Assembly: GCA_964527235.1 (NCBI GenBank)
Contig: CAZGNC010000001.1
Location: 34,263-81,219, forward strand
From: an uncultured Candidatus Saccharibacteria bacterium
GTDB taxonomy: Bacteria > Patescibacteriota > Minisyncoccia > Phycocordibacterales > UBA9973
DNA length: 46,957 nucleotides
Reading direction: 5' to 3'
Part shown: one piece after another, positions 10,084 through 44,752 of the stretch
How positions within the stretch are numbered: position 1 is the stretch's first letter
Layout: every line of letters begins with the position of its first letter
Notes under the pieces: generated by a model
Told to the model about the DNA's origin: nothing
Databases searched by the model: none
Seen by the model: the letters and a program-made list of their open reading frames with translations, nothing else
Translations under genes and position numbers: made by a program

Positions 10084-10794
10084 ATGAATAAAGGTAGCAT
10101 GCATCCGCTTTCGATTCTGACTAATCAAGCATATCAGGCATTTTCAGAGCTTGGTTTCGAGATTGCTATGGGTCCCGAGCTTGAGAGTGAATGGTATAAC
10201 TTTGACGCATTAAACGTAGGTAAAGATCATCCCGCTCGAGATATGCAGGACACTTTCTGGATTAAGGGCCGACCTGGTGACGTGATGCGTACACACTGCA
10301 CTAGTGCGACAGGAAGAGCTCTTGAGCAAGCTCACAAAGACGGCCGAATTCCCGCTGCTTTTATTTCTATTGGTAAAGTTTTTAGAAATGAAGCTACAGA
10401 TATAACTCACGAGATGCAATTCTTTCAGATAGATGGAATCATGGCGGGGAGTATTGAAGACGGAGTGTCCCTCGCCAATTTGAAAGGTGTTTTAACTGAT
10501 TTCTACAAAAAAATGTTGGGGGGCGATGTGGAGGTTGAATTTCGCCCGAGCTTCTTTCCTTTTACTGAGCCGTCACTTGAAGTCTTCGCAAAGTTTAAGG
10601 GTAAATGGCTCGAGATGATGGGAGCGGGGATGCTTCATCCACAAGTTTTGAAAAATCTAGGACTAGACCCTACCAAGGTTCAAGGCTTTGCCTTCGGTGG
10701 CGGGCTTGATCGTATCGCTATGATTAAATGGGGTGTCCCAGATGTCAGACTATTTTATCAGGGAGATTTGAGGCTCAATCAGTTTGAAGAATAA
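10084..10794 (+). CDS. pheS: Phenylalanine-tRNA ligase alpha subunit (catalytic domain only)
   Basis: NFDALN..HPARDMQDTF, FRNE..HEMQFFQ, RPSFFPFTEPS, GFAFGGGLDRIAM. Confidence 0.95.
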   Translation: MNKGSMHPLSILTNQAYQAFSELGFEIAMGPELESEWYNFDALNVGKDHPARDMQDTFWIKGRPGDVMRTHCTSATGRALEQAHKDGRIPAAFISIGKVFRNEATDITHEMQFFQIDGIMAGSIEDGVSLANLKGVLTDFYKKMLGGDVEVEFRPSFFPFTEPSLEVFAKFKGKWLEMMGAGMLHPQVLKNLGLDPTKVQGFAFGGGLDRIAMIKWGVPDVRLFYQGDLRLNQFEE

Positions 10795-10797
10795 TTT

Positions 10798-12612
10798 ATG
10801 AAAATTTCTTACAATTGGCTTAAATGGTATATACCGGATGCACCAGAGGCTGAGAAGCTCGCAGATATTTTCACTTATCATGTTGCAGAAGTAGAGAGCT
10901 TCGATAAGACCGCAAATGGGGATTATATTTTTGATATTAAAATTCTTCCAAACCGTGCGCACGATTTACTTTCTCATCAGGGCATTGCTCGTGAGGTGGC
11001 GTCTTTACTCGGCATTACTTACAACGACCCAACTCCTAAATATAAAATTCCCAAAATAGACCCAAAGACTAAAAAAACTGATTTACAAATAAAAGTTGAA
11101 AGCGATAAATGTCGTCGCTACATGGGACGCATCGTTCGCAATGTGAAAATTGGTCCTAGCCCAGACTGGGTAGTGGGTCATCTCGAGTCGATAGGTCAGC
11201 GCGGAATAAACAACGCCGTGGATGCTGCGAACCTTGTAATGTACGATTGTGGCCAGCCGATACACTGCTTTGACTTGGATAAAGTTTCTGGTGCGCTAAT
11301 CATCCGTCAAGCACGTGACGGTGAAGAAATGACTACACTCGATAATAAACTTGTGAAATTGCAAAGCACCGACCTTGTTATAGCTGATGAGAAAAACGTC
11401 TTGGCTATTGCCGGAGTTAAGGGTGGTAAAGTTGCTGAAGTAGATGCTAATACTAAAAATATAATTATCGAAGTGGCAAACTTCGACCCGACTTCAGTAA
11501 GGAAGACCGCTCAGCGAGCCGGGATATTTACTGACGCACGGAAAAGATTTGAGAATGATTTATCGCCTACACTTTGCGATTTTGCGATGCTTGAGACTTC
11601 AGGGTTGATGATTGAGTACGGTTTTACAGATTTTGAGGACGTTGTGGATGTATATACTGATCTGCCTAAAGAAGAAAAGCTTAAGTTTTCAGTTGATAAG
11701 ATTGCTAAAATCCTAGGTGAAGAAGTTTCTTCTAAGGACATTTCAGAAATTTTGACGAGATACAATATTTCTCATACAGAAGAAGGTGGAGAATTTGAAA
11801 TCACTGTGCCACCAATGCGTTTAGATTTGAGACTTGAAGAAGACATGGCTGAAGAGGTAGGCAGGATTTTGGGCTATGACAAAGTTAAACCTAAACTTCC
11901 AAAGATAAATTTCAAACCCAAAGTTAATGAAACCTTCGCTAAAATCTCATGGGCTCGAAATAAGTTATTTGAAGAAGGGTATTCTGAGGTGATGACTTAT
12001 GCATTTAGAGATACTGGCGAAGTAGAAGTACTTGCCAGTGCTTCAGATAAGAAATTTTTAAGAACGAATTTATCTGATGGGCTAGGGGAGTCTTTAAAAT
12101 TAAATCAATCAAATGCACCGCTGTTGGGATTAAAGGAAGTTAAAATATTTGAAATAGGAACGGTGTTTGGGAAAAACGGAGAGGAGATTCACGTAGCTTA
12201 TGGTGATAAGAAAAAAATTACAGAAGTGAATTTGGATGAATATGTTTCTTCAGCTTCGCTTGATGCTCCTGCTCAGGATCTCCTGCTACGCAACGTCGAC
12301 CGTTCGCAAAAGCATACAAGCGAAGCTTTTAGTATGTGGGCGTTATTTCCATTTATATCCCGTGATGTTGCACTTTGGGTGCCGGAGAATATAAAGAGCG
12401 AAGAAGTCGCAAAGGTAATAAAAGAACATGCAGGGGACTTGGTGGTACGAGGCCCGGAGCTATTTGATGAGTTCAAGAAAGCGGACAAGGTTTCCTATGC
12501 GTTTAGAATTGTTTTTCAGTCTAACGATCGTACTCTAACTGATGCTGAAATAAATGAAGTTATGGAGAAAGTTAATTCTGCCTTAGTAAGCTCTGGCTGG
12601 GAGGTTAGATAG
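10798..12612 (+). CDS. pheT: Phenylalanine-tRNA ligase beta subunit (shortened)
   Basis: MKISYNWLK, PNRAHDLLSH, B3/4 (GQPIHCFD, LAIAGVKGG), B5 (VPPMRLDL..EEVGRILGY), C-terminal FDX-ACB (RDVALWV..LTDAEIN). Confidence 0.95.
   Translation: MKISYNWLKWYIPDAPEAEKLADIFTYHVAEVESFDKTANGDYIFDIKILPNRAHDLLSHQGIAREVASLLGITYNDPTPKYKIPKIDPKTKKTDLQIKVESDKCRRYMGRIVRNVKIGPSPDWVVGHLESIGQRGINNAVDAANLVMYDCGQPIHCFDLDKVSGALIIRQARDGEEMTTLDNKLVKLQSTDLVIADEKNVLAIAGVKGGKVAEVDANTKNIIIEVANFDPTSVRKTAQRAGIFTDARKRFENDLSPTLCDFAMLETSGLMIEYGFTDFEDVVDVYTDLPKEEKLKFSVDKIAKILGEEVSSKDISEILTRYNISHTEEGGEFEITVPPMRLDLRLEEDMAEEVGRILGYDKVKPKLPKINFKPKVNETFAKISWARNKLFEEGYSEVMTYAFRDTGEVEVLASASDKKFLRTNLSDGLGESLKLNQSNAPLLGLKEVKIFEIGTVFGKNGEEIHVAYGDKKKITEVNLDEYVSSASLDAPAQDLLLRNVDRSQKHTSEAFSMWALFPFISRDVALWVPENIKSEEVAKVIKEHAGDLVVRGPELFDEFKKADKVSYAFRIVFQSNDRTLTDAEINEVMEKVNSALVSSGWEVR
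12252..12327. repeat. 76-bp palindromic element inside the pheT coding sequence
   Basis: Arms AGCTTCGCTTG (12252-62) and CAAGCGAAGCT (12317-27), plus ATGCT/AGCAT, enclose two small hairpins. Confidence 0.75.
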
Positions 12613-12627
12613 TTTTCCACAGGGGTC

Positions 12628-12827
12628 TTGTTTTTTATTCATAATTAAATATACTGATATTGTGAACGCACACGCATATATTAATAAGCAAGTTAAGGCA
12701 GCCAATCTCGTCTGCTTTATTTGCATTATTAATAAGCCTTAGAAGGCTGATGCTTGCGCTGTAAAAACTCTCTCGAACTTACAACCCAAACACCAGCCTT
12801 CTAGTAAAGAAGGCTTTGTTGTTCTTT
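12628..12827 (+). promoter_or_regulatory. Sigma70-like promoter and structured attenuator-like leader of the micro-ORF island
   Basis: TTGTTT-16-TATACT (12628-12655); long hairpin 12679-12734; mutually exclusive stems 12740-49/12794-803 versus 12795-802/12808-15 followed by a T-rich tract. Confidence 0.55.
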
Positions 12828-12882
12828 GGGTGTGAGCTGGTGAGCGTAAGCTCCTCACACCTGCGATGTTCCTGCCGGGAGG
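12828..12882 (+). ncRNA. Structured cis-RNA motif, copy 1 (Alu-domain-like topology, SD inside the 3' stem)
   Basis: GGTGTGAG/CTCACACC stem, CTGGT bulge, GAGC-GTAA-GCTC hairpin, TGCGA linker, TTCC-TGCCG-GGAG stem-loop. Near-identical copy at 13122. Confidence 0.7.
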
Positions 12883-12888
12883 AAGAGC

Positions 12889-13110
12889 ATGTCCGACCCA
12901 ACAAGGTTTTGCTCTAGGTGCAAGGAGGAGTACGATCCTAAGCTTGGCCACATCTGCCGGCTCTCTCACGTGCTTGAGCCTCGTCTTGAGGGCGAGACCA
13001 GATCGGATGCGGAGAGGCACGAGGCAGCGAGGTTGAGTCGCATCTCAGACGAGGTGAAGAGTGGTGGTATCAGAACCGGATGGGGTTTCAATGGGGTCGC
13101 AAACCCGTAG
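12889..13110 (+). CDS. Orphan 73-aa protein with a CxxC...HxC putative zinc site
   Basis: GGGAGG SD shortly before ATG; CSRC-x9-HIC. Confidence 0.6.
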   Translation: MSDPTRFCSRCKEEYDPKLGHICRLSHVLEPRLEGETRSDAERHEAARLSRISDEVKSGGIRTGWGFNGVANP

Positions 13111-13121
13111 TTCCTGTATCT

Positions 13122-13175
13122 GGGTATGAGCTGGTGAGCGCAAGCTCCTCATGCCTGTAGTTTTCTGCCGGGAGG
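13122..13175 (+). ncRNA. Structured cis-RNA motif, copy 2
   Basis: GGTATGAG/CTCATGCC stem (compensatory changes versus copy 1), CTGGT bulge, GAGC-GCAA-GCTC, TGTAG linker, TTTTC-TGCCG-GGAGG stem-loop. Confidence 0.7.
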
Positions 13176-13184
13176 GCTTTACTG

Positions 13185-13358
13185 ATGGAGATGTTTGGCA
13201 AGCAGTTTCGCGATGAAGACGAGGGGGCAAATGCAGTAGGCTTTAGCCGTGTAGTCGGCGACAAGAAGCCGACAACCCCGGAGACTGTGGCGAAGAAAGA
13301 AGAGCCCACGGACCCCAGGAAGCCGGCCTCACTCGGAGGCTGGTCGAAGTATCAGTAG
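13185..13358 (+). CDS. Orphan 57-aa charged, Pro-rich protein (MEMFGKQFRDEDEG...GGWSKYQ)
   Basis: Below the ORF-track cutoff; translated by hand. SD GGAGG 9 nt before ATG, the same position relative to the motif as ORF 12889. Confidence 0.55.
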   Translation: MEMFGKQFRDEDEGANAVGFSRVVGDKKPTTPETVAKKEEPTDPRKPASLGGWSKYQ

Positions 13359-13396
13359 GGTATTGCAACAAGCACCAAAGCGGTGCATCAAAGCGT

Positions 13397-13431
13397 GCGG
13401 GAGTGATCGATGATGATCACTCCCGCTTTTT
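13397..13431 (+). terminator. Intrinsic terminator ending the two-ORF unit
   Basis: Perfect 12-bp stem GCGGGAGTGATC/GATCACTCCCGC followed by TTTTT. Confidence 0.85.
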
Positions 13432-13534
13432 GTTTTGTTGCATTGCTCTGAAAAAGTAGTATATTTCTTAATTGTATTAGTACCTCTGTGTGTAACATAC
13501 CCACAGAGCACACTTGATCCATCGGAGGCACGAG

Positions 13535-13711
13535 ATGCACATCAGGTCAGAGATAACTGGGTATGACAAGGATGCTGTTCGCTCCTGGATGCATGCTCGC
13601 ACCAAGGACGTCTTGTATCCCCCCATTCGTTCAAAGAGGGCGATCATGGACGCCGTGAGTGCACGACTCGCGATTTACTTGGCTGAGGCCAGGGAGCCGT
13701 GGGAGCAGTAG
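13535..13711 (+). CDS. Orphan 58-aa protein (MHIRSEITGYDKDAV...REPWEQ)
   Basis: GGAGG 6 nt before ATG 13535; candidate promoter TTGCAT-16-TATATT (13438-65); followed by a terminator-like hairpin. Confidence 0.55.
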   Translation: MHIRSEITGYDKDAVRSWMHARTKDVLYPPIRSKRAIMDAVSARLAIYLAEAREPWEQ

Positions 13712-13716
13712 AACAA

Positions 13717-13756
13717 GGACCGGCACGCGATACGTGTGCCGGTCCGCAGTTTTTTA
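13717..13756 (+). terminator. Terminator-like hairpin between the island and gyrB
   Basis: 13-bp stem GGACCGGCACGCG/CGTGTGCCGGTCC (one G-U), then GCAGTTTTTT. Confidence 0.7.
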
Positions 13757-13768
13757 CCCCTAAAATAA

Positions 13769-16074
<2,306 letters not shown>

Positions 16075-44620: not shown

Positions 44621-44663
44621 TCAAACATAAAACCCACTCATTATGAGTGGGTTTTATGTTTGA
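44621..44663. terminator. Bidirectional terminator
   Basis: Perfect 20-bp inverted repeat TCAAACATAAAACCCACTCA-TTA-TGAGTGGGTTTTATGTTTGA between convergent transcripts. Confidence 0.85.
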
Positions 44664-44679
44664 GGCTATGACTTTCGGG

Positions 44680-44752
44680 AGCCACCTCTCGGATTCGAAC
44701 CGAGGACCTTCGCTTTACAAAAGCGTTGCTCTACCAACTGAGCTAAGGTGGC
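44680..44752 (-). tRNA. tRNA-Thr(TGT), CCA not encoded
   Basis: GCCACCT/AGGTGGC acceptor stem, D arm GCTC/GAGC, anticodon loop TTTGTAA, T arm CTCGG-TTCGAAT-CCGAG. Confidence 0.95.

Follow-up and report, generated by a model that had tools for sequence, protein, structure and literature searches.

A palindrome in pheT of a Patescibacteria genome is likely an old, translated copy of a dispersed hairpin repeat

Introduction

Palindromic repeats that lie in frame in essential genes have until now been a signature mainly of Rickettsia, whose Rickettsia palindromic elements (RPEs) were reportedly described by Ogata et al. in 2000 and 2002, as RPE-1 to RPE-8/10. Our literature search found no published link between palindromic or RPE-like elements and the candidate phyla radiation (CPR) or Patescibacteria. 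Here, we examine a palindrome at 12252–12327 (+ strand) of a 46,957-nt stretch of DNA from an uncultured Candidatus Saccharibacteria bacterium (Patescibacteriota; contig CAZGNC010000001.1, positions 34,263 to 81,219), the whole of which we call the window. The palindrome lies in pheT (10798–12612, + strand), which encodes a 604-aa PheT protein of phenylalanyl-tRNA synthetase (PheRS) with B3_4, B5, shortened CLM, and FDX-ACB domains. We consider this palindrome likely to be a translated copy, passed on by vertical inheritance, of an RPE-like hairpin repeat of Paceibacteria (Patescibacteria) that is small and non-autonomous, for which we propose the name protein-coding palindromic element.

Results

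The pheT palindrome forms a hairpin within an open frame

The terminal arms of the palindrome, AGCTTCGCTTG (12252–12262) and CAAGCGAAGCT (12317–12327), are 100% complementary over 11 bp with 54 nt between them, and ATGCT (12263–12267) and AGCAT (12311–12315) extend the stem with one A bulged, bearing out the perfect inverted repeats and the extension described in the original prediction. That prediction also placed two small hairpins between the arms; CCTG-CT-CAGG is present, and the second pairs as AACG/CGTT only, not as it was first drawn. RNA folding of 12245–12335 gave −32.1 kcal/mol (z −4.5), with none of 200 shuffles equally stable. The pheT frame stays open across the element, which encodes the peptide ASLDAPAQDLLLRNVDRSQKHTSEA (PheT residues 486–510) upstream of the FDX-ACB (B8) anticodon-binding domain (12346–12591, + strand; Pfam, residues 517–598), the in-frame linker position that had been predicted. 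Because 76 nt is not a multiple of three, the real boundaries of the element differ from the ends of the palindrome.

Taken alone, the palindrome is unconvincing. Within 200 nt, about 2 perfect 11-bp inverted repeats are expected by chance in 47 kb, and the window holds 18 inverted-repeat pairs of at least 11 nt, perfect 11-bp ones being not rare; the pheT element also falls outside the window's 30 strongest folding outliers. Such counts speak for a palindrome that arose by chance in a fast-evolving, unconstrained linker and resembles other sequences only by coincidence. The stem is moreover imperfect in near-identical strains: wastewater runs X6 (DNA) and X10 (cDNA) carry the variants G12258A and C12268T, the former unpairing one position of the 11-bp stem. 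It is homology to other copies, together with co-variation of the arms, that makes the element real.

The outer stem and the apical module recur in other genes

In the register of the family, established from a stems-only alignment (A4) and its pair counts, the outer stem of the window copy has 19 of 21 positions paired. Its left arm, AGCTTCGCTTGATGCTCCTGC (12252–12272, + strand; family consensus AGCCTCGCCTGATGCTTTTGC), and its right arm, GCAAAAGCATACAAGCGAAGCT (12306–12327, + strand; bulged A at 12316), enclose an apical module that we call core B, CAGGATCTCCTGCTACGCAACGTCGACC (12274–12301, + strand), which encodes QDLLLRNVD and is a variant of a more widespread module, core A. The window arrangement, AGCTTCGCTTGATGCTCCTGC-TCAGG...GACC-GTTC-GCAAAAGCATACAAGCGAAGCT, aligns base for base with core A copies, such as that in pheS of locus L077, AGCCTTGCCTGATGCTTTTCC-TCAGG...GACC-ATTC-GCAAAAGCACACAGGCTCGGCT (shown also as AGCCTTGCCTGATGCTTTTCCTCAGG...GACCATTCGCAAAAGCACACAGGCTCGGCT; L numbers denote loci of other genomes). 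In other Paceibacteria, core A is enclosed by the same outer stem, in frame, in pheS (L077), tsaD (L168), ileS (L196), uvrB (L130), and the gene for an FAD-linked oxidase (L200), indicating that the whole hairpin is the repeat unit in this subfamily. With copies from five genes other than pheT, the window arms (21 and 22 nt) form a gapless alignment. These comparisons place the window palindrome in a dispersed family of hairpin repeats.

The pheT gene of L001 has the 28-nt core B unchanged, and those of L028, L012, L205, and L004 (PheT identity 62–73%) differ from it at 1–5 positions. The UvrD helicase of L133 carries core B as well, in frame but inverted, in another stem. In each of the source runs X1–X3, in which 100% of the sampled words of the window are present, there is a second contig that matches 12266–12312 over 47 nt with 4 differences, and its flanks, AGAGAAGCAAA and TTTACTTCTCT, form a stem of their own; the depth of this contig, 7.97/5.0/6.84, follows that of the window contig, 7.4/5.5/7.9. 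Core B reads as a shortened derivative of core A in the clade of the window, not as random decay.

The arms co-vary while the encoded residues change

Across the 19 copies of alignment A4, 83.7% of cells pair, and changes on both sides are found in 14 of 21 pairs (41 cells), a level reached by none of 500 shuffles; sliding the register yielded 2–9 cells only. Relative to the consensus, the window copy has two compensated C-G to T-A pairs and closes the two central mismatches of the family; at the protein level, these differences replace P by L, G by S, and S by E. The arms would thus have been kept complementary despite amino-acid changes, whether by selection or by templated correction. Selection on the hairpin could maintain this complementarity; we favor arm-to-arm templated correction through quasi-palindrome template switching during replication.

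These results bear directly on the chance reading. The lack of a significant match of the core A covariance model (described below) on the window would sit well with coincidence, as would the inverted-repeat counts, but core B recurs identically or nearly so in five relatives, the arms show gapless alignment with copies from five other genes, no shuffle attained the co-variation observed, and the second contig of the source runs contradicts it too. We therefore find a chance origin scarcely credible.

Core A is dispersed in both orientations and all frames

Core A consists of GGTCCTCGG, a variable hairpin, and CCAGACC, and lies between TTTTYYTCA and ATTCRAAAA, beyond which comes the long outer stem, making a unit of about 76–105 nt with an outer stem of about 21 bp and the apical module at its tip. 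It is found in many structured pheT linkers (ten species have it on the + strand and five on the − strand), and RNAalifold identified a co-varying inner stem within it. Core A is read in all three frames (QVLGS, SGPR, and GSS; in reverse, GLAG...RGPE), indicating that it is conserved as nucleic acid and not as peptide. Across 80 species loci it lies at three sites of pheT/pheS; copies besides those in the pheT linker are in an N-terminal loop of PheT (L076, L078, and L060) and in the DTFF-x7-VLRTHT loop of PheS (L077). A covariance model of core A (R1) recovered all 18 of its training copies and also matched L062, a second L060 copy, and L039, as well as the orthologous elements of L028 (31.8 bits, E 1e-4), L002/L004 (E 0.035), and L001 (E 0.048).

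Scanning JGI metagenomes for TCAGGTCCTCGG N3-33 CCAGACCRT returned at least 124 matches in at least 120 stretches, including at least 105 plausible core A copies; about 19 of the matches listed have a GC-rich, non-palindromic context and are probably due to chance. Among the matches listed, 89 have strictly palindromic flanks, and of these stringent copies 66 lie inside open frames of at least 150 aa (45 in the orientation of the host gene and 21 opposite to it) and 23 are intergenic-like. Pfam assigns the host genes to PheT, TsaD, a class-V aminotransferase (IscS-like), an FAD oxidase, the CCA-adding enzyme, UvrA, UvrB, UvrD/PcrA, PolA, SMC, RsmA, and an M1 peptidase; class I aminoacyl-tRNA synthetases (aaRSs; Ile/Leu/Val-RS) are hosts as well. 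Several single contigs carry more than one copy (three in L108; two each in L155, L078, and L170). The original prediction of a repeat that colonizes coding sequence is upheld by these dispersed in-frame copies; its comparison with repetitive extragenic palindromic (REP) elements in the strict sense, which are extragenic, begin with a GTAG-type 5′ end, and go with a REP-associated tyrosine transposase (RAYT), is not.

Individual loci offer further detail. In L108 (1269–3848), three core A copies are spread across rsmA and uvrD, and in L133 (4162–7157), uvrD combines a copy resembling core A with core B in inverted orientation, and the neighboring rsmA has an inverted core A. The PheS loop DTF[FWY]-VLRTHT measures 7 aa in about 32 genomes and is expanded to 19–36 aa by hairpin elements of several families in L077 (409–496), L052 (about 417–472), L006 (about 408–465), L005, L008, L050, and L060; in the genome studied here, the loop (DTF-IKxxxxx-VLRTHT) is unoccupied, as our PheS loop survey showed. 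The pheS genes of L006 and L052 have one core at the same site in opposite orientations and within different stems, for which we considered a flip in place; the comparison is indecisive, as a flip and two insertions both fit. At the pheS loop and the N-terminal site of pheT, the element replaces host codons rather than merely adding to them, as compared with empty orthologues. We also considered that the outer stems at these two sites derive from the host by inverted target duplication, but found no convincing match to the empty orthologues; both sites carry the family stem in diverged form. Three ribozyme- or motif-like readings of the core were dropped: a hammerhead, since the CUGAUG-like string is not common to other copies; a bulge-helix-bulge (BHB), since the loop across from the CUC bulge is not that of a BHB; and a k-turn, since tandem G·A is absent. 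Two synthetase genes met in this survey carry nested domains, a complete histidine-phosphatase domain within IleRS of L196 (3201–6821) and a NUDIX domain within LeuRS of L179 (131–3028).

The pheT linker is a hot spot for hairpin elements

We retrieved 80 pheT loci from species genomes and extracted 71 linkers, finding a strong hairpin (z below −3, in some cases reaching −8) in 32 of them, compared with 4 of 71 control segments of the same length taken 600 nt upstream. Structure is absent from linkers of about 23 aa (e.g., CKDMSSEPSLELRNYNLETKF), which resemble an unoccupied slot. The slot is filled by at least seven repeat families in all, at least six of them besides that of the window, and these too recur in other genes. 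The pheT linker is thus a hot spot for hairpin elements. AlphaFold2, run on an alignment of 30 sequences, gave a pLDDT below 50 for residues 487–515, with confident strands at 450–484 before the linker and a B8 domain from residue 520 at a pLDDT of about 90, predicting that the element-encoded linker is disordered between confident domains. Together with the variation of linker length from 21 to 41 aa, this model places the insert in what would be a tolerant part of PheT. A near-identical strain also yielded a 151-nt contig from a cDNA library that covers 12236–12386, and thus the whole element, with no joint; this is weak evidence on RNA, as DNA is possible in such libraries. Taken with the open frame, these sequences suggest that the element is read through in frame within its host protein.

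At the same gene, the near-identical Nomurabacteria pheT alleles of L002 and L004 differ by a precise 72-nt, GC-rich, in-frame insertion (L002, 11402–11473; PARNASPASNASRSDSGWHSDAGG). It has no target duplication, and no further copy was found in 1.19 Mb of loci.

The hairpin might instead be a selected cis-acting structure of the pheST mRNA, acting as a translation pause before B8 folding or as a processing or stability signal, an effect on pheT expression that had been raised as an alternative at the outset. The strong co-variation of the arms amid changing amino acids would suit such a role, and so would the location of the slot exactly at a domain boundary and its occupation by hairpins of unrelated sequence in nearly half of the species. 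Yet the same elements and stems occur in pheS, tsaD, ileS, uvrB, uvrD, polA, and other genes and between genes, and almost a third of the in-frame copies among the matches listed (21 of 66) run opposite to the host gene, where the RNA would differ. In addition, the linker is unstructured in about 40% of orthologues, close ones included; of the 11 stem pairs, L001 (86% PheT identity) has lost 3; and the unpaired G12258A is present in near-identical strains. An mRNA structure selected in pheST is, on this balance, improbable, and the occurrence in many genes, in both orientations, and in intergenic DNA counts against it.

The pheT insertion is not recent

The best-scoring PheT relatives come from Nomurabacteria/Paceibacteria metagenome bins and are all 589–634 aa long. 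Aligning 30 orthologues, we found a linker of 21–41 aa at this place in every one; the peptide motif SA..DA..QDLLLRN.DHSQKH can be traced to about 65% identity, and a homologous element lies at the same place in orthologues down to 62% PheT identity. This shared position indicates that the insertion is not recent, and sequence comparison points to an old, vertically inherited copy. The original prediction named orthologues with a linker of equal length but no palindrome as counting against it, and this is seen in part: equally long linkers are indeed present, but they hold the same palindrome or a repeat of another family, and the shortest hold none.

The stem itself has fared differently among relatives, with 3 of 11 pairs lost in L001 and the stem of L004 (68% PheT identity) preserved by three double changes (AGCTGAGCCTG/CAGATTCAGCT). 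A rough PheT tree, which has no support values, groups the window with L001 and L205 (core B) as sister to L206, which has core A within the same stem family, and places L012 (core B) elsewhere. These positions of core B and core A species are no proof, yet they suggest turnover of the apex within the pheT slot.

Weighing the explanations

The explanation we prefer is a translated, inherited hairpin repeat. In this view, an ancestor of this species and of its relatives with 62–86% PheT identity acquired the element where a flexible linker joins the shortened B6/7 (CLM) domain to the B8 anticodon-binding domain. Transcription together with pheT, followed by translation, lengthens the disordered linker by about 25 residues, a peptide that would have no role in PheRS and be merely tolerated. 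Its spread would require an enzyme or process that acts in trans on the folded hairpin.

Several observations weigh against this explanation. Model R1 scores only 11.5 bits (E 2.8) on the window copy, and neither BLAST nor a covariance-model search found a second copy within the 47-kb window. There is no transposase among the 20 window open reading frames (ORFs) of unknown function that we scanned. We found no filled/empty pair of close relatives that would define the ends of this family, the exact insertion length, or a target-site duplication, or that would show movement as such. The second contig of the source runs may come from a co-occurring relative, and arms that co-vary this strongly are compatible with a selected hairpin function as well.

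No Rfam family reached its gathering threshold on the elements in the window, and none matched the elements of six element-carrying loci at an E of 1 or less; the sole match on these six loci was a sub-threshold RF03531 in the conserved helicase coding sequence of L133.

The translation of the element could itself be questioned, if it were removed from the RNA as a mini-intron or bypassed by the ribosome and never entered the protein. Lying within coding sequence, compact and stable, and with its apex conserved, the hairpin does recall bypass elements, known from phage T4 gene 60 and as the byps of yeast mitochondria. Only a translated sequence, however, needs an open host frame through the element, and the frame is open through 66 of the 89 stringent copies among the matches listed, in both orientations and three frames; the jointless cDNA-library contig points the same way, weakly, as it may stem from DNA. 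We regard removal or bypass as very unlikely.

A broader possibility, to which we give some weight though we think it unlikely, is that the apical modules (core A, core B, and those of other families) are themselves the real replicating or recognized units of an undescribed hairpin-specific mobilization in Patescibacteria, or else selected structured nucleic-acid signals in essential genes. Such mobilization would proceed through single-stranded DNA (or be RNA-templated) without a gene in cis and would strike the same tolerant protein loops time after time, with rebuilding or correction of the outer stems where they lie.

Neighboring features of the window

The PheRS encoded at 10084–12612 is minimal. 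PheS has 236 aa (pheS, 10084–10794, + strand; assigned from the ORF list and from synteny with L001, where the gene carries PF01409), and PheT, with its 604 aa, has no Pfam match for the B2/OB domain and only a half match for the CLM domain; this size of PheRS is common to all 120 relatives among the matches listed. Downstream, the 1.2-kb gap between pheT and gyrB (12613–13801) contains the strongest folding outliers of the window, perfect 12–13-bp hairpins at 13351–13426 and 13666–13745, along with just two small reverse ORFs and no Rfam match. A similar gap is present in L001, and the spacing is 22 nt in L002/L004. Elsewhere in the window, a perfect 21-nt palindrome (TCAAACATAAAACCCACTCAT/ATGAGTGGGTTTTATGTTTGA) at 44621–44663, located 17 nt from a tRNA gene (44680–44752), is probably a bidirectional terminator.

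Discussion

We judge the pheT palindrome to be an RPE-like protein-coding palindromic element in a new phylum. By itself, the window element is one more, rather old, example of in-frame hairpin repeats; finding the same behavior across Paceibacteria suggests a general consequence of genome reduction and host dependence. Such elements inflate and diversify CPR proteins, the linker lengths of PheT, PheS, TsaD, and aaRSs varying because of them, and they give rise to spurious "novel motifs" and may lead alignment, phylogeny, and structure prediction astray. An enzyme that moves them would probably be new.

Among described systems, REP elements and bacterial interspersed mosaic elements (BIMEs) mobilized by RAYTs (Y1 HUH enzymes) share with the repeats studied here small, imperfect palindromes that are thought to be handled as folded single strands by a trans-acting enzyme. 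REPs are, however, extragenic, 20–40 nt long, and marked by a conserved GTAG-type 5′ tetranucleotide, whereas most copies here are intragenic and in frame; no GTAG-type end was seen in the element copies we read, and no Y1 transposase (RAYT) among the 20 unknown-function window ORFs scanned. Classical bacterial MITEs (miniature inverted-repeat transposable elements), such as Correia of Neisseria and Nezha of cyanobacteria, are likewise non-autonomous and dispersed, have terminal inverted repeats, and are occasionally in frame. They are defined by the inverted repeats of a parent insertion sequence (IS) and by target-site duplications, neither of which could be shown here (no IS was seen in the window or the loci), and conservation in the pheT family peaks at the apex, unlike that of MITEs, and not at the ends.

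RPEs are the closest parallel. We found several features that define that class: a stable hairpin, homologous copies at unrelated loci, in-frame read-through, and a tolerant linker as the receiving site. RPEs and the Patescibacteria elements are both short (about 100 nt), hairpin-forming, dispersed repeats that lie in frame in housekeeping genes of a reduced-genome, host-dependent bacterium and add an extra surface or linker peptide; both occur in non-coding DNA as well, and neither has a transposase encoded in cis. The likeness is one of class and not drawn from comparison with RPE sequences, and the Patescibacteria elements belong to another phylum. They also differ from RPEs in placing a conserved apical module on a co-varying outer stem that differs between subfamilies, in using both orientations and all three frames, and in occupying slots, such as the pheT linker and the pheS loop, that are filled by several unrelated families across species.

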